Origin: a virus
DNA: 64,000 bases
Direction: 5' to 3' (one strand)
IMG/VR virus record: IMGVR_UViG_3300032223_001420
Location: 1 to 64,000 of that record
A program made the translations under genes and the position numbers. This document shows positions 21,817 through 30,143 of the stretch, in pieces (position 1 is the stretch's first letter; every line of letters begins with the position of its first letter). Below the pieces are notes generated by a model that saw only the letters and a list, made by a program, of their open reading frames with translations, had not been told where the DNA came from and did no database searches.

Positions 21817-21842
21817 ATGCCATCTTCGGGTGGCATTTTTTA
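21817..21842 (+). terminator. Rho-independent terminator between convergent operons
   Basis: ATGCCATC-TTCG-GGTGGCAT followed by a T-run. Confidence 0.8.
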
Positions 21843-23645
21843 TACTTTGCGTGTTTCGGTGACGTTATTGTTTGTGCTACGAGCAGCAATATAAGTTGGA
21901 TTCTGTGGTTTTGATTGTTCACGATAAGCTAACGCAAGTTTAGATGATTCTGCATCCAAACCTTGACCATAATCACCTTTGTAGTTTGCATACTTTTCAC
22001 TTATTGAATAATCTGTTGCAGCAATTTTATCACCAAAACTAATCATTCTGGTAGCACCAGTTTTCACAGGATCAAAAGTATCTTTACCGTCATAAGAAAG
22101 TTTACTGCGATGTTCAAAGTGTAAATGTGCGCCATAAGCATCTTCGATTATTCTACCATCCTTTTTACTACTTCCTCCAACAAGTCCAATCGTTTGCCCC
22201 TTCTCAATCTTGTCACCAGACTTAACAAGCATTTTGCTCAGGTGTGCAAAGCGTAACAATTCACCATTCGTAATGATATCAACAACACGACCATATCCAT
22301 TGTGTGCAGATGCATCAACAACTTTAGCGGCGGAACCTATAAAAGTAATTGGTGTAGCATATGCAGCTTGATAATCAATACCACCATGCAATCTAGGTTG
22401 CTTTTCATCGGGCAATTGACGCATACCATATTTTGAAATGATTTTGACTACATTCGAACCATCCGAATATTTCATTCCTGTATCACCAGAACCTTCTTTT
22501 TCGTCTTTTTCTTTTCTCTTTTCTGCTGTAGGTTTTTTCTCTGGTGGTTCTGGTATAGGTGCTTTCGTACCATCTGATGCGGGTACTTGTCTTACATCTA
22601 CTTTAGGTTTTACTTCTTCTTTTTTAGGTACAGGAGTTGGTGCCTCTTCTTTCTTTGGCTCCTCTTTTACTTCTTCTTTTTTACCAAATACTCTACTAAG
22701 AAAAGGTTTTTTCTTTTCTTTTTCAGCCGCTTCTGCAACTTTCTTTTTTCTTTCTGCTTCTTTTTTGTCTTCTTCGGCTTTCAATAACTTAGATTTTTCT
22801 TCGAAAAGTTTATTTCTTTTATCCGACAGGTCTTTGTCTTGTTTATCTAAGTCATCATATTGCTTTTTTAATTCTTCGGAACGTTTAACTAACTGCTCAT
22901 TTACACTGCGTCTTTCAATAAGTTTATCAACATCAACACCAAGAATATCTTTTGCAACATATCTTCCAATAACTTGCAACTTAGGCGCCAACCATTCTAC
23001 AGCACTTTTAATAAAGCCGCCAATACCTTTTACAATTTCTTTATAAACCGAACCTACTTGTCCAAGCGCACTATCAACTTGCTTTTCACTAATCAAACCA
23101 AAACTGATGAAGTTTAAATATTTTTTGAATGCTGTTTTGAATAAATCTAACCAATCCACATCTTTGAAAAAGGTGGTTACACCGTCGGCTATGTAAGAAA
23201 TTCCTTCAGATATTATGTTGGTAATTTTCTCAATATAAGGCGAAATGATTTCCGTAATTTTATAAATTACATATCCAACAGAAAGCAACGTGGTAATGAA
23301 TAGACCTTGTAATACTTTTACAAAGAAATCTAGTATGCCAGCCAGAAAAGTTCGTTTCTTTTCTTTTCCATATTTTTTAACTTTGATGGTTGCTACTTTT
23401 ATTTCTTTAGATTCTGATAGAGATTTCGTAATATCCGAAATCTGACTTCCAGTTGCCGGTTCAATATTGTGTAATTTTACATAGTTACCAAATGCATTGT
23501 TTAATGCTTTAAGTTCTTTAGCGATTGTTGGAAACAGTAAAGTATTCTTGGCGATGATACGCAACGAAGACACTGCATCTTTTGTGTCTCTGTCTTTTTG
23601 TACCTTACTATCAGGATTTTTTTTGTTAAATAATTTTTCTAACAT
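21840..23645 (-). CDS. Tape-measure/hub-like protein with an M23 peptidase domain
   Basis: HGGID (HxxxD), GYG, FAHL, G..V..GQ.IG.VG, HLHFE (HxH); TM segment and coiled coil. Confidence 0.85.
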   Translation of the reverse strand: MLEKLFNKKNPDSKVQKDRDTKDAVSSLRIIAKNTLLFPTIAKELKALNNAFGNYVKLHNIEPATGSQISDITKSLSESKEIKVATIKVKKYGKEKKRTFLAGILDFFVKVLQGLFITTLLSVGYVIYKITEIISPYIEKITNIISEGISYIADGVTTFFKDVDWLDLFKTAFKKYLNFISFGLISEKQVDSALGQVGSVYKEIVKGIGGFIKSAVEWLAPKLQVIGRYVAKDILGVDVDKLIERRSVNEQLVKRSEELKKQYDDLDKQDKDLSDKRNKLFEEKSKLLKAEEDKKEAERKKKVAEAAEKEKKKPFLSRVFGKKEEVKEEPKKEEAPTPVPKKEEVKPKVDVRQVPASDGTKAPIPEPPEKKPTAEKRKEKDEKEGSGDTGMKYSDGSNVVKIISKYGMRQLPDEKQPRLHGGIDYQAAYATPITFIGSAAKVVDASAHNGYGRVVDIITNGELLRFAHLSKMLVKSGDKIEKGQTIGLVGGSSKKDGRIIEDAYGAHLHFEHRSKLSYDGKDTFDPVKTGATRMISFGDKIAATDYSISEKYANYKGDYGQGLDAESSKLALAYREQSKPQNPTYIAARSTNNNVTETRKV

Positions 23646-25735
23646 TATGCCGTTACTCTATTTGCCATCGCTGTTCCTGGATCAGTTTTTGGTTTTTCCA
23701 ATGAAGCAGTTTGAGTGTCTACTTTTTTATTGTTATTAACCCTAGCTACATTCACTACATTAGCATCTTTAGGCTTCAATTGTTCTCTTTGTGCTTGAGC
23801 AACTTGCGTAGATTCATCTTGTAAAAATTTACCGGCGGCAGCAACTTTAGTTGAGCCTGTTACTGAAGCAAGTGCTGCCGAACCTTCTTTGTCACTAGCA
23901 GCACCAGCACGAATCAAACTTAATGTTATTGGACCACGACTCTTGACTTGTTTATACCAAGCACTATTTCTAAATTCATCTGCGGCACCTTTAAAGTTTC
24001 CTTCACCTAATAGTGCTGCCGCCTTTTTAAATTTCGTATACCAATAGCCACCCATGTTATATGTCAAATCAACCAATCCAGCTTTACCAGCTTCATTAGC
24101 CTTGTCCCAACCAGGTGCTTTTTCTGCTAGTTTCAAATGTTCGGCAAAATCTTTTTCAAACAATATACGAATTTCTTGATTACTGAATTCTCTGTCATAT
24201 TCTTTAGGTAATTTTTTACCATCACCAATCAAATGCCCAACACCAACAGTCCATAATCCACGAGAATCTTTGTATGGTTTATTTTTCCATCCCTCATTTG
24301 CAATAACCATTTGTTTGATGTTTTCATACTTACCACTTGTTGGAGATGGAGTTGCCGCTACCGGTGCAACCGCAGGCGCTGGTGTTACTGCTGGTGCGGT
24401 TGCGGGTTTAGTTATTTTCGGTTCAGCTTTTGGTGGTGTGGTTTTCTGCTCAACGGGAATACTTCCACCTTCTCTTGTTCGTTTTGTTTCCGCTTCAAGT
24501 TCAGTCTTTTCTTTTTCCTGTTTTGCCTTTTCGACTTTTGCTGCCTCTAAATTAGCTTTTTCGGGACCCTCAGCCATTGACTTAATATCATATTCGAGTG
24601 TGGCTATTTCTATTTCAAGTTGACGAATATGAATTTTTTTCTGTTCGATTTTTTCGTCCATTTGTTGAAAATACTCAGCATATTTCTCACGTTGTTTTGC
24701 TTCTTCTTCCATTCTTTTGGCATTCATTTGCTCGAATGAAGATTTAAAATCTGATGGAGTAGATTCGTTAGTAAATAAAGAGGTAACTTTTTTGTATATA
24801 AAGATGGCAAATTTACTAATTTTTTCTTCAATAAATTGGATTGATTTGTCTATTACATTCAAAGAAAACTTAAAGAAATTATTATACCATTTACCAAAAA
24901 AATCATAGATATCAGACGAATTTTCTTTACCCAATATACCAAAGCTGAATTCATCCATCAGACCAACAATAAAAGTTTTAAAAAAATCTCCACCTTTTTG
25001 ATACTCCGCCCATGCGTCTTTTAGTGGGTCCCAGACCATTAATACGACTGTTACTGCGGCCGCAATCAATGCTGCAAATGGACCAGAAAACGCTACGGAA
25101 GCGGCAAACGCAGTGCCAAATCTAACGGCCAATTTTTGTAAACCTTTTGTGAAAAATCGTTTTAATGCATTCGAAAATACTTTAACTACAGGTTTTATAA
25201 TTTTACTGGCGTTTTTTCTAAACCAATCCATGAACATCTTTTTGACGTTCAGTTTACCCATTATACTTTTTAGACTTGATAATAGTTTTCTTTTGAATTT
25301 CATAAACTTACGAATCCACGTAAGTTTTTTCAACTTCTTCAATGCTGCTGCGGCAAGTTTTCGTTCTAACGGTCTTTCTACTCTATAATTGATATATTTT
25401 TCCATCAACGATTTTACCCAACCTTTATTACTATGGGTTCCATCTTGTGATGCTTTGGATATTTTTGAACCTAGATATTTTTCACGAAGAACATTGAATT
25501 TTTTAGAACGCTCGTCATCTTTCAAAAAGTGTGCATCTGGAGTACCTTTAACTTTGATACCCTCTATGGCCAACCAACGTGAAAAATTTAAACGAATGAG
25601 TTTGAGGTCGTTTGCCATTTTACCAATGGCAAGATAATTAATCGCTGTCTTTTTTAGGGTGCTGACTACAGGAGATGGTGATGATTTATTAAGATCACCC
25701 TTGTCTATTGTAAGACCAAGAAGATCAGATAGCAT
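23645..25735 (-). CDS. Tape-measure/hub-like protein with a T4-type lysozyme (GH24) domain
   Basis: NEGWKNKPYKDSRGLWTVGVGHL has the E-x8-D-x5-T catalytic spacing; L.YNMG, S.WY.QV..R. Confidence 0.88.
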   Translation of the reverse strand: MLSDLLGLTIDKGDLNKSSPSPVVSTLKKTAINYLAIGKMANDLKLIRLNFSRWLAIEGIKVKGTPDAHFLKDDERSKKFNVLREKYLGSKISKASQDGTHSNKGWVKSLMEKYINYRVERPLERKLAAAALKKLKKLTWIRKFMKFKRKLLSSLKSIMGKLNVKKMFMDWFRKNASKIIKPVVKVFSNALKRFFTKGLQKLAVRFGTAFAASVAFSGPFAALIAAAVTVVLMVWDPLKDAWAEYQKGGDFFKTFIVGLMDEFSFGILGKENSSDIYDFFGKWYNNFFKFSLNVIDKSIQFIEEKISKFAIFIYKKVTSLFTNESTPSDFKSSFEQMNAKRMEEEAKQREKYAEYFQQMDEKIEQKKIHIRQLEIEIATLEYDIKSMAEGPEKANLEAAKVEKAKQEKEKTELEAETKRTREGGSIPVEQKTTPPKAEPKITKPATAPAVTPAPAVAPVAATPSPTSGKYENIKQMVIANEGWKNKPYKDSRGLWTVGVGHLIGDGKKLPKEYDREFSNQEIRILFEKDFAEHLKLAEKAPGWDKANEAGKAGLVDLTYNMGGYWYTKFKKAAALLGEGNFKGAADEFRNSAWYKQVKSRGPITLSLIRAGAASDKEGSAALASVTGSTKVAAAGKFLQDESTQVAQAQREQLKPKDANVVNVARVNNNKKVDTQTASLEKPKTDPGTAMANRVTA

Positions 25736-25737
25736 AG

Positions 25738-27423
25738 TTAAGCAGCAGCCGTTCTATTTGAATAATAACTATCAATAAAACTAGTATTAAATGCATCGGC
25801 TGTTTGTTTTGATTTGTTACTGGTCGTACCCATATTATTATTGACGGTACCAGCATCAACAACAATACCAGCATCAGCAGCCGCATCCATTCTCTGTCCT
25901 TCAGCAACATCAGATGATGCTTGTGATAGTGATGCTCCAGAAGTTTTTGGTGTTGCTGCTGTTTCTGCTGAAGGTGAAGCGGCTGCACTTATTGAAGATG
26001 CCGGTGGTGTTCCACCTCCAGCAGTTGCCGCAGGAGGTGTTGCTGTTTGTGTAGTTGGAGCAACTGCTGTAGGTGTTGCTGCTGCTTTCAGTGCTGCTAG
26101 AATTTTATCAGGATTGCCCCCTTCGTCCGCAATATCTTGCCGAACGGCTTCTACTGAAACTGGATAATTTGTTTTTACTCTTGAAAAACCCGTTGGCGAT
26201 TTTGGGTCAACTTGTACACCAACTTTTTTTCTTAAAAATTCTACAGCAGATTCTTTACTTGTTTCCGCTTTGGTTGCTAAAGATTCTTTTGATGCGGAAC
26301 CTTTTGCTCCTTTATCGGGAGTTGGGCTTGTTGCCATACCACCAGACACAACAACACCTTGCTGATCGGTGACAATTTCTCCTTGTGCAGTTTTTGCTTT
26401 ACCTAAATCTTCTTTAGGTGGAGCAATTGGTGTCGCACCACCAGTTGGTGCTGGAGCAACTTCATCCGCAGTTTTCTTAAATGGTCTAAATCCAGGTACC
26501 TGAACATCAGAAAACCCCCAACCAATTTTCTTTAATAAGTCACCGACAATAGGAAGATCATTAATCTTAGATAATGGAATCGTAAATGGGTCCCACCCAA
26601 TATTATCTTTTAACCATCCTACAATTTTTTGAAATGTTTCACCAATAACATCAATCATTGGAGAAATATATTCTGATAAATCATCTAATGATTTGCGTAG
26701 TTCTTTTTCACCAAATAATCCAGCAGTAATAAAATCTAAAAATTTACCAACACCTTTAATCAGCGTCTCTTTAACGATATCCGTTTCGGTAATTGCTTTC
26801 CAGCCTTCTTCAATAGATTTGAATAGGTCTTCAATTAATGGCAATGGATTTAATTTCTCTGCAATACCACTTATAATCTTACCCAAATCAAATGCGGAAG
26901 AAAATGCTAAGGCCAAACCTAAAAAGAGAGTTGCTAATACCTTTTTCAATAAATCCCAAAGATAACCAACAACACCTTCTTCACCACCAGTGTCTTCTTT
27001 TTCTTTTTTAGGTTTACCTTCTTTGTCTACCTGCTTTGGAGCAGTTTCTTTCTTACGGGCTTCTTCAAGTTCTGCTTCTCGTTTGTCTTCGGTTTTAAAA
27101 AACTTATCCGCTTTGGTAATCGCTTCGGCGTTTTTAAACTTGACTAGCTTGACAATATTTTGACGCAACACATTCATATCTCTTGCCATACCAGGCAGAG
27201 CAAGAGAGTTTTTCGCAATGATGTTTAGAAAAGGTATAACATCTGCGCTGATTGAACCTTCAGTCTCACCGCCAGCTTTAGTTGGAGACTTCTCATCCTT
27301 TTTTTTCTGAAATAACGAACCAAATGAAAAACTAGCCCCTTTGTTACCAAGAGACTCTTTCATCATACGAAAATTTTCGTACCCTAACTTCTTAGCCAGT
27401 TCTTCTAAATTTTTATCTGCCAT
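25738..27423 (-). CDS. Tape-measure/baseplate-hub-like protein
   Basis: Position after gp51; helical/TM region; paralogous motifs shared with the two downstream genes. Confidence 0.65.
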   Translation of the reverse strand: MADKNLEELAKKLGYENFRMMKESLGNKGASFSFGSLFQKKKDEKSPTKAGGETEGSISADVIPFLNIIAKNSLALPGMARDMNVLRQNIVKLVKFKNAEAITKADKFFKTEDKREAELEEARKKETAPKQVDKEGKPKKEKEDTGGEEGVVGYLWDLLKKVLATLFLGLALAFSSAFDLGKIISGIAEKLNPLPLIEDLFKSIEEGWKAITETDIVKETLIKGVGKFLDFITAGLFGEKELRKSLDDLSEYISPMIDVIGETFQKIVGWLKDNIGWDPFTIPLSKINDLPIVGDLLKKIGWGFSDVQVPGFRPFKKTADEVAPAPTGGATPIAPPKEDLGKAKTAQGEIVTDQQGVVVSGGMATSPTPDKGAKGSASKESLATKAETSKESAVEFLRKKVGVQVDPKSPTGFSRVKTNYPVSVEAVRQDIADEGGNPDKILAALKAAATPTAVAPTTQTATPPAATAGGGTPPASSISAAASPSAETAATPKTSGASLSQASSDVAEGQRMDAAADAGIVVDAGTVNNNMGTTSNKSKQTADAFNTSFIDSYYSNRTAAA

Positions 27424-27563
27424 TACTTCCTAGCCTGTTTTTGTGCATTAATACGTTCTTTTTCTTCTTCCAGATACTTAATCAAAAGACTAATGTATAT
27501 GTTTCTTTCCCAAGGTATCATATCTTCAAGTTCAGTCAAACTATATTTGTGATGCTGCATCAT
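27423..27563 (-). CDS. gp51: gp51-like baseplate hub assembly protein (46 aa from ATG; probably the C-terminal part of a frameshift fusion)
   Basis: MMQHHKYSLTELEDMIPWERNIYISLLIKYLEEEK; not in the ORF track. Confidence 0.8.
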   Translation of the reverse strand: MMQHHKYSLTELEDMIPWERNIYISLLIKYLEEEKERINAQKQARK

Positions 27564-27610
27564 TGCAAAGTTTGTCTGATAGTAATTACCTAGTGTATCA
27601 TGACGAAATA

Positions 27611-28342
27611 TTAAGCGAAAAAATTTTGTAAGCCTTTGATGACCATTTCTTCCTCATAGCCACATTTAGGGCAATGAAAGTGAACATCTTTTTTAATCTC
27701 AGGCATTGTGTCAAAAAACACACGAATTTTTTCTAAATCTTTTTGCTGCATAGAATCCACGAAGTCTTCAAGTTCTTTACGTGAGGTATCTTTGGCATAA
27801 TAAATTTGTTCATCATCATATAAGAAATCGATACAGTCAATAAGAATATTGACCATGATATCATTTTCATCCATCTGTTCATACTTCTGAACCATCTCAA
27901 ACGTTGGATATTTTAGACTGATGCCGATTTTATCATTCAACATAAACTTAGATTCATGCTCGGTGTGTTTTGTTGGTTCTATTTGTAATAGGTTTACATC
28001 AAACTCAACGGAGCCGTTACAAACGGTATCTTCACCCTTATCGTTTTTTATTGAATTGTTGCATTTATATTTTAGGTTAACGACTTCTTCTACCGATCTT
28101 GCACGAAGATTCATAAACAGATATTCAAGATCAAATGTTGGCAAACTATCAACATCTATCTCATCCAAGATACAGTTTTTTAAAACTTGCTTAATTGTTG
28201 TGATCGTTTCTTTTGAATCTTCTGATTCGGCTGCCATTAAAAACAACTTTTGTTCTTTGACTAAGAATGGACGAATTCTAACATCCTGTCCTGTTGAAAT
28301 CAATTTAACATTGTAAATAGGCACATCAAGTTTTGGTAACAT
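27611..28342 (-). CDS. gp26: gp26-like baseplate hub assembly protein/chaperone
   Basis: LPK...P.Y...L.S.G..V..RPFLVKE.K..LMA.ES, FD.EYLF..LRARSV.E, KYP, F.TMP, GL.NFF. Confidence 0.85.
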   Translation of the reverse strand: MLPKLDVPIYNVKLISTGQDVRIRPFLVKEQKLFLMAAESEDSKETITTIKQVLKNCILDEIDVDSLPTFDLEYLFMNLRARSVEEVVNLKYKCNNSIKNDKGEDTVCNGSVEFDVNLLQIEPTKHTEHESKFMLNDKIGISLKYPTFEMVQKYEQMDENDIMVNILIDCIDFLYDDEQIYYAKDTSRKELEDFVDSMQQKDLEKIRVFFDTMPEIKKDVHFHCPKCGYEEEMVIKGLQNFFA

Positions 28343-28359: not shown

Positions 28360-29100
28360 TTAAAATATACTTCTTCCAAGCACACCTAATCCAGTTGCTC
28401 CAAGCGTTGTTAGTGTTTGACCAACATCCCAATTACCTTCATAAATTGGTCGATAACGTTGATAAGCAAACTGTATTGACAAACGATGAAACCCATCATC
28501 TTGCCAGCTTAGTGTTTGTGGAGAAATTCCAATTGGAAAAGCATCAACTAAATCTACCGCAAATATCTGACGAACCACATCATCATATTGTATAATACGA
28601 ATATTTGTCATGTATCTTGATGCTTCGCTTTTTGGAAAACGAGCGTTGTTTGTATCAGACGGTATAATTGCTTCCATCCAACGATCAAACAATTTGCGCT
28701 CGTAAAAATCATTTGTACAGATAAACGTCAGTGTTGTATCTGTGTATTGCATACGATATGGAATCTTATAACTTGGTCCATATATTCTTGCATCGGCTGT
28801 TTCTAATGTACGACCTGGCAATTCTGCTGCTTCACATTGTAACGCTAAGTATCGTGATATCGATGGGTTAGCCGACTTCATTGGTCCATCTTGATCTTGT
28901 GTTCCTAATGCAGAATTAATAGCATCCGAAACATCTGAAAAAATAGAATTAGGAAAATTCAATATTTTCTCGATAACTGAGTTACCTACCGCTTGTCCAA
29001 TATAAGGTGGTATGGGTAATATCACTTCAAATCGTGATGGTTTGGCTGGACCGCCTTTACCGTTTATATTTGATAGAAATAGATTAGGTGAAAACGACAT
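28360..29100 (-). CDS. Tail tube / baseplate-tube initiator (gp19/gp54-like)
   Basis: GG.AK..RF.V, C....LPG, YGP..K.PY, F..W...I, AFP.......LS, F.Y. Confidence 0.75.
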   Translation of the reverse strand: MSFSPNLFLSNINGKGGPAKPSRFEVILPIPPYIGQAVGNSVIEKILNFPNSIFSDVSDAINSALGTQDQDGPMKSANPSISRYLALQCEAAELPGRTLETADARIYGPSYKIPYRMQYTDTTLTFICTNDFYERKLFDRWMEAIIPSDTNNARFPKSEASRYMTNIRIIQYDDVVRQIFAVDLVDAFPIGISPQTLSWQDDGFHRLSIQFAYQRYRPIYEGNWDVGQTLTTLGATGLGVLGRSIF

Positions 29101-29684
29101 TAAAATTTATCCTCTGATTCTGACCATACTTTGTTTTTACTTGCTTTAGCAAACGACTCTACAGGCAACATGACGGCGATGTCCCATTCATCTGCTGTAA
29201 TCTCTAAAAACCTAGACTGCACATGACTAAACAAGTATCGTTTGATACAAGGTTTAGCCTGATATATTTTCGATGCTTTTGCTAGGTAATCATAACTTAT
29301 TCTGAGTCTAGTTTTCTCATCGTAGTTATGGTCAGTTAATAAGGTACTCAATTTATCTAAAAGAAGTACACGTTGCTTTGGGCTAATGTAATGTAAATTG
29401 AGCCCTAAAAAGCCGTCTGGGTATTGTTCTATTGGAATCACCAATGGGAACTTATCGTAGTATGGCAACGTATCCTTCGTTTTTGGATCATAAAAATAAA
29501 AGTACATTCTACCAATAATGGACTTTTCTCTGAGTCTTTGCTTGTCACGCATCAAATCACCTTTGGTAGGTTTCAATGCAGAGATTTTAGCTTTTAACCA
29601 AGTACGTGAGTCACGTGTACGAGGTTCTAATCCTTTTTTAGCAAGAGATTCTTTGATTCTGTCTATGAGTGTTTTGGTAGCCAT
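29100..29684 (-). CDS. gp2: DNA end protector gp2
   Basis: G.MYFY.YDPK.K..LPYYD.FPL, GLNLHY, PC.KRYL..HV.S, W..A..LP...F. Confidence 0.92.
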   Translation of the reverse strand: MATKTLIDRIKESLAKKGLEPRTRDSRTWLKAKISALKPTKGDLMRDKQRLREKSIIGRMYFYFYDPKTKDTLPYYDKFPLVIPIEQYPDGFLGLNLHYISPKQRVLLLDKLSTLLTDHNYDEKTRLRISYDYLAKASKIYQAKPCIKRYLFSHVQSRFLEITADEWDIAVMLPVESFAKASKNKVWSESEDKF

Positions 29685-29696
29685 CTAGTATTTATC

Positions 29697-30143
29697 TCAA
29701 ATGCCTAGATGTTTTTCCGTGATGACTTGAAATTCCCAGCCGTGGTCTTTGCAGAATTCTGTTGCTGCTTTCCACTTTGATTGGTTGATGATGTACGTAG
29801 CCGACTCTTGCAGGTATCGTTTAGTCTTGCGTTTTTGAGTTGGTGGTTTAGTTTGAGCATCTGGCTTAACTTCAATGATATAAGTTTTTATTGTACCGTC
29901 TCTGCGGCGTATTTTGGCTACAAAGTCGGGAAAGTACCGATGTTTCTTATTATCGATTGGATTCCAGTAAGGTATGACCAGTTCTTCCGAACCCCACCAT
30001 ATAACGTCAGGATGCTCATCTAAATATTTCATCACCTTTAACTCCCAGGACGAACGATAGATGATGTTTGTCGCATCCCCTTTATATTTTTGTGGGTTTT
30101 TCGAAACGAAGATTCCTTTGTAAGTTTTTCCTGAATATGACAT
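29697..30143 (-). CDS. gp4: Head completion nuclease gp4
   Basis: NP.KY.GD...I.YRSSWE, W.SEE..IPY, HRYFPDF, IEVKP..QT, N..KW.AA, F...TE. Confidence 0.92.
   Translation of the reverse strand: MSYSGKTYKGIFVSKNPQKYKGDATNIIYRSSWELKVMKYLDEHPDVIWWGSEELVIPYWNPIDNKKHRYFPDFVAKIRRRDGTIKTYIIEVKPDAQTKPPTQKRKTKRYLQESATYIINQSKWKAATEFCKDHGWEFQVITEKHLGI

Follow-up and report, generated by a model that had tools for sequence, protein, structure and literature searches.

A gp26-type gene with a probable -1 frameshift extension into a gp51-like module at a T4-like phage locus

The DNA analysed here, referred to below as the window, is a stretch of 64,000 nucleotides (nt) from a virus (IMG/VR virus record IMGVR_UViG_3300032223_001420, positions 1 to 64,000; G+C content 38.5 %), and the subject of this work is a gp26-type gene on its minus strand together with the gp51-like open reading frame (ORF) that follows it in the -1 frame. 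On the minus strand, the 3' end of gp26 reads GGC TTA CAA AAT TTT TTC GCT TAA. A first-pass annotation, made from the sequence of the window, had proposed that this end contains two overlapping slippery heptamers, A_AAT_TTT and T_TTT_TTC, and that a -1 shift there fuses gp26 to the gp51-like ORF as a pair resembling lambda G/GT. Both heptamers were found at the coordinates it gave, each in X_XXY_YYZ phase. No stop interrupts the -1 frame between a point about nine codons 5' of the heptamer and the TAA that closes the extension, a stretch that includes the ATG at 27563 and has the reading already given in that annotation (...FFRLIFRHDTLGNYYQTNFAMMQHHKYSL...). In line with the same annotation, the 15 bases preceding this ATG contain no purine-rich Shine–Dalgarno stretch, as judged by eye. 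With the shift placed at T_TTT_TTC, 242 residues of gp26 would be followed by 64 residues of extension, giving a predicted fusion of 306 amino acids (aa). The bare motif TTTTTTC is not special in the window, because its 32 occurrences are about as many as expected (29.9 ± 5.9). An in-phase slippery heptamer within the last five codons was found in one of the 62 window ORFs of at least 100 aa, namely gp26. The features of the locus are listed in Table 1.

Table 1. Position of the gp26-type gene, the elements at its 3' end and the neighbouring genes in the window
Feature	Position	Strand	Remarks
gp26-type gene (TAC-N equivalent), 243 aa, zero frame	28342..27611	minus	TAA stop 27613-27611 included
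Slippery heptamer T_TTT_TTC, proposed -1 shift site	27623-27617	minus	One codon before stop; conserved
Overlapping heptamer A_AAT_TTT	27626-27620	minus	Present, not conserved
Purine-rich AAAGG	27637-27633	minus	9 nt 5' of heptamer; possible Shine–Dalgarno-like stimulator, weak, unspecific
-1 extension, 64 codons, gp51-like C-terminal module (TAC-C equivalent)	27617-27423	minus	CGC 27617-27615 to TAA 27425-27423
ATG usually annotated as separate 'gp51' start	27563-27561	minus	21 codons into conserved extension
561-aa gene, candidate tape measure (gp29 equivalent)	27423..25738	minus	Downstream of gp26 extension
Tail-tube-like gene (gp54/gp48 type), 246 aa	29100..28360	minus	Upstream of gp26; phrog_45 'tail tube' E 1.6e-35
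gp2-like DNA end protector gene	29684..29100	minus	
gp4-like head completion gene	30143..29697	minus	

The gp26 protein was a full-length member of the Pfam family PF12322 (T4_baseplate), residues 8–243 matching profile positions 2–219 of 219 (E 3.8e-61; 207 bits, compared with a cut-off of 24.5), and it matched the PHROG profile phrog_150 ('baseplate hub') from position 7 of 282 (E 3.9e-69). The zero-frame match to phrog_150 stopped at position 232, and the -1 frame picked up the same profile at position 231 and carried it to position 279 (E 1.7e-8); the -1 peptide also matched phrog_634 (E 1.1e-28).

The conservation of the junction was assessed in a sample of 229 loci, of which 227 were assessable (two end before the gp26 stop) and which contained 169 non-identical junctions. 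The sample comprised 80 IMG/VR loci with gp26 proteins 70–93 % identical to that of the window, 80 loci related to S-PM2 gp26, 60 loci related to phiM9 gp26, eight GenBank phages and the window itself; when Vibrio D482 gp26 was the query, no relatives were found among viral contigs. The motif T_TTT_TTN was present in the same phase in every one of the 227 loci (TTTTTTC in 176, TTTTTTT in 47 and TTTTTTG in four), which included phages of cyanobacteria, Vibrio, Sinorhizobium, Caulobacter, Pseudomonas and Ralstonia. The first Phe codon was TTT in all of them, and the codon before the T run always ended in T even though it encoded Asn, Asp, Ser or Ala (AAT in 86 loci, GAT in 50, TCT in 49, AGT in 40 and GCT in two). 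In two clades the entropy was zero at all seven heptamer positions, including the synonymous ones, and the zero-frame stop followed the heptamer at a distance of no codons (40 loci), one codon (184 loci) or eight codons (three loci). As judged from this comparison, the heptamer is conserved as DNA, beyond the two Phe residues that it encodes and far beyond chance. This holds for one of the two heptamers of the first-pass annotation: A_AAT_TTT was not conserved, relatives reading CAG AAT TTT or CAA AGT TTT, and because the codon before the T run varies (AAT, GAT, TCT, AGT, GCT) it is probably not a functional site. A -1-frame stop lies directly 5' of the heptamer in 42 loci, and in these a shift is therefore possible only at the heptamer. 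A variant lineage of three IMG/VR loci (L215, L216 and L218), in which the zero frame runs eight codons past the heptamer, likewise has a -1-frame stop directly 5' of it.

All 227 loci had an extension that matched a profile made from aligned gp51 C-termini, and the 221 complete extensions were 57–68 residues long. Across the 52 non-identical full-length junctions of the window clade, extension codons 1–18, upstream of the ATG, had entropies of 0.27, 0.11 and 0.71 at codon positions 1, 2 and 3, respectively; codons 19–45 had the same pattern (0.36, 0.11 and 0.71), and the same codon periodicity was seen in the cyanophage clade. By this measure, the coding character of the -1 frame begins at the slip site and covers the stretch that precedes the annotated ATG. 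An alignment of homologous loci had been put forward in the first-pass annotation as a check of its proposal, and it came out in favour, with the heptamer kept throughout the sample and the -1 frame upstream of the ATG varying in the manner of coding sequence. An in-frame fused form was not found in the close clade among the best 120 of 2206 protein matches, all of which were 239–244 aa long except one of 217 aa. Synechococcus phage ACG-2014i (NC_027132) has an annotated gp26 followed by an unannotated extension region of 180 nt; there is no ATG ahead of the conserved LMQHH in this phage, and a -1-frame TAA lies directly 5' of its heptamer.

Genes 26 and 51 of T4 lie side by side and are transcribed divergently. 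T4 gp26 matched PF12322 (E 8.8e-64) and so did residues 1–201 of T4 gp51 (249 aa; E 3.9e-52), of which residues 147–246 matched the gp51 profile phrog_634. From this combination of a whole-family match with a gp51-profile tail, it follows that T4 gp51 is a gp26 paralogue with the C-terminal module fused in frame. The -1 peptide of the window is a homologue of the C-terminal ~50 residues of T4 gp51, and its contiguity with the gp26 domain requires a -1 shift; the -1 peptides of nine phages aligned unbroken across the junction with the in-frame gp51 proteins of T4 and Aes012. In tblastn searches the full-length form was found in 1375 of 1380 matching records; 587 records matched the short module, their sources being cyanophages and phages of Vibrio, Aeromonas, Rhizobium, Sinorhizobium, Pelagibacter, Methylophilales, Caulobacter, Pseudomonas and Ralstonia. 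In the Aeromonas record that was inspected, Aes012, the module sits inside a full-length in-frame gp51.

The T4-type phages also provided a control for the heptamer, in a small set from GenBank (eight phages, with the IMG/VR T4-like locus L236 in addition; the T4 gp26 query returned only seven loci). None of the eight Straboviridae with a separate full-length gp51 had an X_XXY_YYZ motif in the last 20 codons of gp26. The Phe-Phe pair was kept as TTC TTT in gp26 of T4, RB69, Bp7 and a Klebsiella phage, and L236 reads GAG TTT TTT, with its T6 run in the wrong phase. On this evidence the heptamer has been retained precisely in those phages that need it, which argues against a constraint acting at the protein level alone.

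Structural models of gp26 and of the extension were made with AF2, each modelled alone. In the gp26 model (pLDDT 89.6, pTM 0.82), Phe 241–242 fall in a low-confidence tail past the last strand (230–236), so that the extension would be appended to a complete domain. The extension was predicted to be all-helical (pLDDT 79), with the ATG at 27563 inside the predicted helix 11–25; the 'start' Met encoded there is replaced by Ile, Leu or Val in 13 close relatives. A sequence search for solved structures returned none for gp26 or T4 gp51, no Pfam tail assembly chaperone (TAC) family matched gp26 at E 0.01 or better, and a Foldseek comparison of the gp26 model with the PDB had no match with an E of 0.001 or below (2ob9, E 1.6). 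When gp26 residues 1–91 were compared with 48,161 chains by VIA-align, in which a Z under 8 can reflect a common arrangement, the top rows were 3fgx (Z 7.6) and, both at Z 7.0, the HK97 tail assembly chaperone (2ob9) and YqbN (3klu); 5ir0 came next (Z 5.6), and the first unrelated row stood at Z 4.5. These matches are suggestive of a TAC-like fold for the N-terminal domain as modelled. A passage in Leiman et al. (2010; PMC3004832) describes T4 gp26 and gp51 as hub assembly chaperones and gp51 as absent from the particle, and one GenBank record labels gp51 'tape measure protein assembly chaperone'. The beta-rich second domain of gp26 (residues 85–240; 27611–28090) gave weak VIA-align matches to Hsp40/DnaJ peptide-binding domains (3agz, Z 3.9; 7zhs, Z 3.3; 1nlt, Z 3.2). 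A zinc-ribbon-like hairpin has its C-terminal CxxC in this domain, which is probably why several gp26 homologues carry the automatic JGI name 'RNA polymerase subunit M/TFIIS'.

We hold it to be probable, with good confidence, that the gp26-type gene yields a short and a long protein by tandem -1 ribosomal slippage on T_TTT_TTC. The slip signal and its conservation, the selection on the -1 frame and the homology to T4 gp51 are shown by the present data. The proposal of the first-pass annotation, namely that slippage into the -1 frame where gp26 ends creates a lambda G/GT-like pair, is supported by the conservation of the heptamer at synonymous sites, by the coding pattern of the -1 frame and by the continuity of the phrog_150 match, and also by the in-frame equivalent in T4 gp51, the absence of the heptamer from T4-type gp26 and the apparently TAC-like fold of the gp26 N-terminal domain. 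Under this proposal, gp26 would encode two products, both acting as chaperones of tail (hub and tape-measure) assembly. The majority of ribosomes would terminate at the zero-frame TAA and produce the 243-aa short form, the counterpart of T4 gp26, and a minority, an efficiency that we infer, as we do the ribosomal nature of the event, would slip one base back with the Phe-tRNAs on TTT TTC inside the heptamer. The slipped ribosomes would then read CGC TTA ATA... in the -1 frame and produce a long form of about 306 aa, consisting of the whole gp26 domain and the 64-residue helical C-terminal module and corresponding to T4 gp51. As to binding partners, by analogy with lambda G/GT, as generally understood and as treated in a passage of Atkins et al. 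(2016; PMC5009743), the role of the domain common to both forms would be to coat the tape measure protein, and that of the rare C-terminal module to recruit a tube or hub partner.

Several results weigh against programmed ribosomal slippage into a fused protein, the first of which concern stimulatory signals. The 97 nt downstream of the site in the window (27616–27520) folded no better than shuffled sequences (-14 kcal/mol, z -0.28), and the RNA structure 5–9 nt downstream of the heptamer that is a criterion of canonical stimulated -1 programmed ribosomal frameshifting was absent there. A 70-nt downstream stretch had a mean z of -1.17 across 163 junctions, with z below -2 in ~31 % of them, and no conserved downstream stimulatory structure was detected either in the window clade or across the 163 junctions; a hairpin at the right distance was present only in some relatives (P-SSM2, Vibrio D482 and Milchi). 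The AAAGG upstream of the heptamer has parallels in 150 of the 169 non-identical junctions, in the form of similar purine-rich 4–5-mers 8–10 nt upstream, and was discounted as a stimulator because the same conserved (R/K/E)-Gly codons are found in T4-type gp26 proteins without a slip site. The structural match of gp26 to 2ob9 is a middling one (rmsd 4.0 Å over 83 residues).

A further difficulty is that a protein identical to the frameshift product would arise by transcriptional slippage, if RNA polymerase inserted one extra U on the run of six to eight T's. The conserved element is indeed a homopolymeric T run (six T's in 180, seven in 12 and eight in 35 of the 227 loci), the lack of a conserved downstream RNA structure suits such a process, and lambda-type systems reportedly need only a few percent of the long form (3 to 4 %). 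All 180 six-T runs, however, lie in the single phase that permits tandem tRNA re-pairing (T_TTT_TTC); the equally synonymous N TTT TTT phase was found in none of the 180, and heptamer position 1 is always the 5' limit of the run. Six T's are also short for slippage by bacterial RNA polymerase. Transcriptional slippage is accordingly regarded as unlikely, and tandem ribosomal slippage is preferred.

A second alternative dispenses with the fusion and has the gp51-like ORF translated alone, as a protein of 46–60 aa, its translation starting either at an internal ATG or, through coupling or re-initiation, at the stop of gp26. This is how the locus is treated in GenBank, where none of the eight inspected records with the split arrangement has a joined coding sequence (CDS) and seven annotate a separate small ORF. 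Moreover, five junctions from outside the cyanophages were inspected, and in four of these (Vibrio, Sinorhizobium, Caulobacter and Ralstonia phages) an ATG overlaps the gp26 stop. Among the 221 complete extensions, the first ATG falls within four codons of the slip site in 81, at or near the gp26 stop (TGATG or TAATG types), so that a small protein is possible in those lineages; in the other 140 no ATG lies within this distance, the first one being at codons 5–15 in nine, at codons 16–21 in 116 and at codon 22 or beyond in 15. Separate translation would leave unexplained both the invariant synonymous T's of the heptamer and the absence of the heptamer where gp51 is full-length, as well as the coding-type selection on the 18–20 codons before the ATG in clades that lack an upstream start. 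The replacement of the 'start' Met in close relatives, the mid-helix position of the ATG and the fusion of the module to the gp26 domain in T4 gp51 also speak against it, and we consider it very improbable as the sole account of the locus. As for the possibility that T runs are simply common in an AT-rich genome and the open -1 frame is accidental, which the base composition of the window and its ordinary number of TTTTTTC motifs might suggest, it is refuted for practical purposes by the conservation of the site in every assessable locus across diverse phages, together with the entropy pattern and the single window ORF that ends in such a site.

The first-pass annotation had placed the gp26/gp51-like pair between a tail-tube-like gene and tape-measure-like genes. 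Upstream, the gene is tube-like by its phrog_45 match but is of the gp54/gp48 type: the 246-aa protein scored 22 bits against PF06841 (gp19), which is under the family cut-off, and in phiM9 the syntenic gene carries the annotation gp54. Downstream, the ATG of the 561-aa gene overlaps the stop codon of the extension by one base (TAATG). The 561-aa protein had no Pfam, PHROG or NCBIfam match, and its BLASTP matches to T4 gp29 (E 0.79) and to a Cr30 'tape measure' (E 1.0) were not significant; in Atlas, a language-model comparison that provides leads only, the cluster at rank 2 was PF25671 (T4_Tape_measure; score 0.91, 151 shared features). It is a candidate tape measure protein only by its position and the Atlas lead, and this limits the tape-measure part of the earlier description. 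The 561-aa gene is followed on the minus strand by genes for a 696-aa protein with a phage lysozyme domain and a 601-aa protein with an M23 peptidase domain (the three within 21840–27423), and these genes, like those upstream of them in Table 1, are part of a T4-type tail and hub cluster. A weak motif is shared by the N-termini of the 561-aa and 696-aa proteins (79 residues, BLASTP E 7e-4). This motif, seen in the comparison of those two proteins, and the lysozyme and M23 domains would suit a family of tape-measure or ejection-type proteins encoded in tandem.

The gene arrangement of other T4-like phages bears on how the split and two-gene states are related. T4-type gp26 proteins (T4, RB69, Klebsiella phage 15882-3-1 and Bp7) have three or four residues past Phe-Phe (ELL, KIMS, KVM), and these end residues resemble the start of the gp51 extension (KLL). 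It looks as if T4-type gp26 arose from a fused copy that was truncated by a stop, and an end that lies three or four residues into extension-like sequence fits a history in which the two-gene state is derived. In Cronobacter phage GAP161 (Pseudotevenvirus), a full-length gp51 and gp26 are co-oriented in tandem, directly after gp48 and gp54, which may be an intermediate gene order relative to the divergent order of T4. A joint reading of the results would be that, outside the Straboviridae, the small gp51 of all T4-like phages, counted as a 'baseplate hub assembly catalyst' with the near-core T4 genes, is the -1 tail of gp26 and not a gene of its own, that in the window clade the shift takes place on a bare U6 heptamer with a nearby stop and no RNA structure, and that the two-gene state of T4 is derived and goes back to the duplication of a copy with a fixed shift. 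Taken as a whole, this reading is in our view evenly balanced between being right and being wrong.

The arrangement of gp26 and gp51 is already known for T4-like phages, and the belief expressed in the first-pass annotation that it had not been described in them is contradicted by passages citing Vladimirov, Gautam and Davidson (Virology 2022, 566:9-15). As far as the title of that work and the passages that cite it go (PMC10885494, PMC12846349), gp26 and gp51 are the tail assembly chaperones (TAC-N and TAC-NC) of T4-like phages. According to the citing passage in the PRFect paper (PMC10885494), frameshifting is replaced in some T4-like phages by two genes, one short and the other longer and fused. 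The citing passage in the phage Adele paper (PMC12846349) credits the work with poly-T sequences that serve T4-like phages as signals for a -1 shift in their TAC-N genes. To this published idea the window adds one more instance, with comparative statistics. A -1 extension also explains the short gp51 of cyanophages and vibriophages, which was noted in 2010 to be only ~20 % of the length of T4 gp51 in a passage that gives no explanation (Sullivan et al., 2010; PMC3037559). The practical value lies in annotation, the inspected GenBank records with the split arrangement being without a joined CDS. The finding also brings the T4 superfamily under the general rule that long-tailed phages make two tail assembly chaperones, one short and one long.

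Compared with the gp26/gp51 chaperones of T4-like phages, as these are represented in the citing passages, the window has the same PF12322 family, the same short/long logic and the same poly-T slip sequence. In T4 and other Straboviridae, the long form is a separate full-length gene (divergent in T4) and there is no slip site, whereas the window has one gene with a -1 extension. A -1 frameshift in the TAC genes of long-tailed phages is reportedly conserved. The window resembles the lambda gpG/gpGT system in that gp26 is followed directly by a long protein that is possibly the tape measure, and in that its N-terminal domain, as modelled, may resemble the HK97 chaperone, and neither of the T4 counterparts belongs stably to the virion; like a G/GT-type pair, it has a slip site at the end of the shorter frame, here T_TTT_TTC with a 64-codon -1 extension, kept in all 227 loci. 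The lambda heptamer, in contrast, is G_GGA_AAG, and gp26 of the window is larger than a G-type protein (243 aa), with an extra beta-rich, Cys-containing domain (residues 85–240), and has as its upstream neighbour a tube initiator of the gp54/gp48 type, not the major tube gene. In Escherichia coli dnaX, a -1 shift takes place on a homopolymer-type heptamer near a stop, with a purine-rich Shine–Dalgarno-like element ~10 nt upstream and a strong downstream hairpin. The homopolymer-type heptamer near the stop and the upstream purines are alike in the window, but the window is without the hairpin, and its Shine–Dalgarno-like bases are explained by conserved codons.

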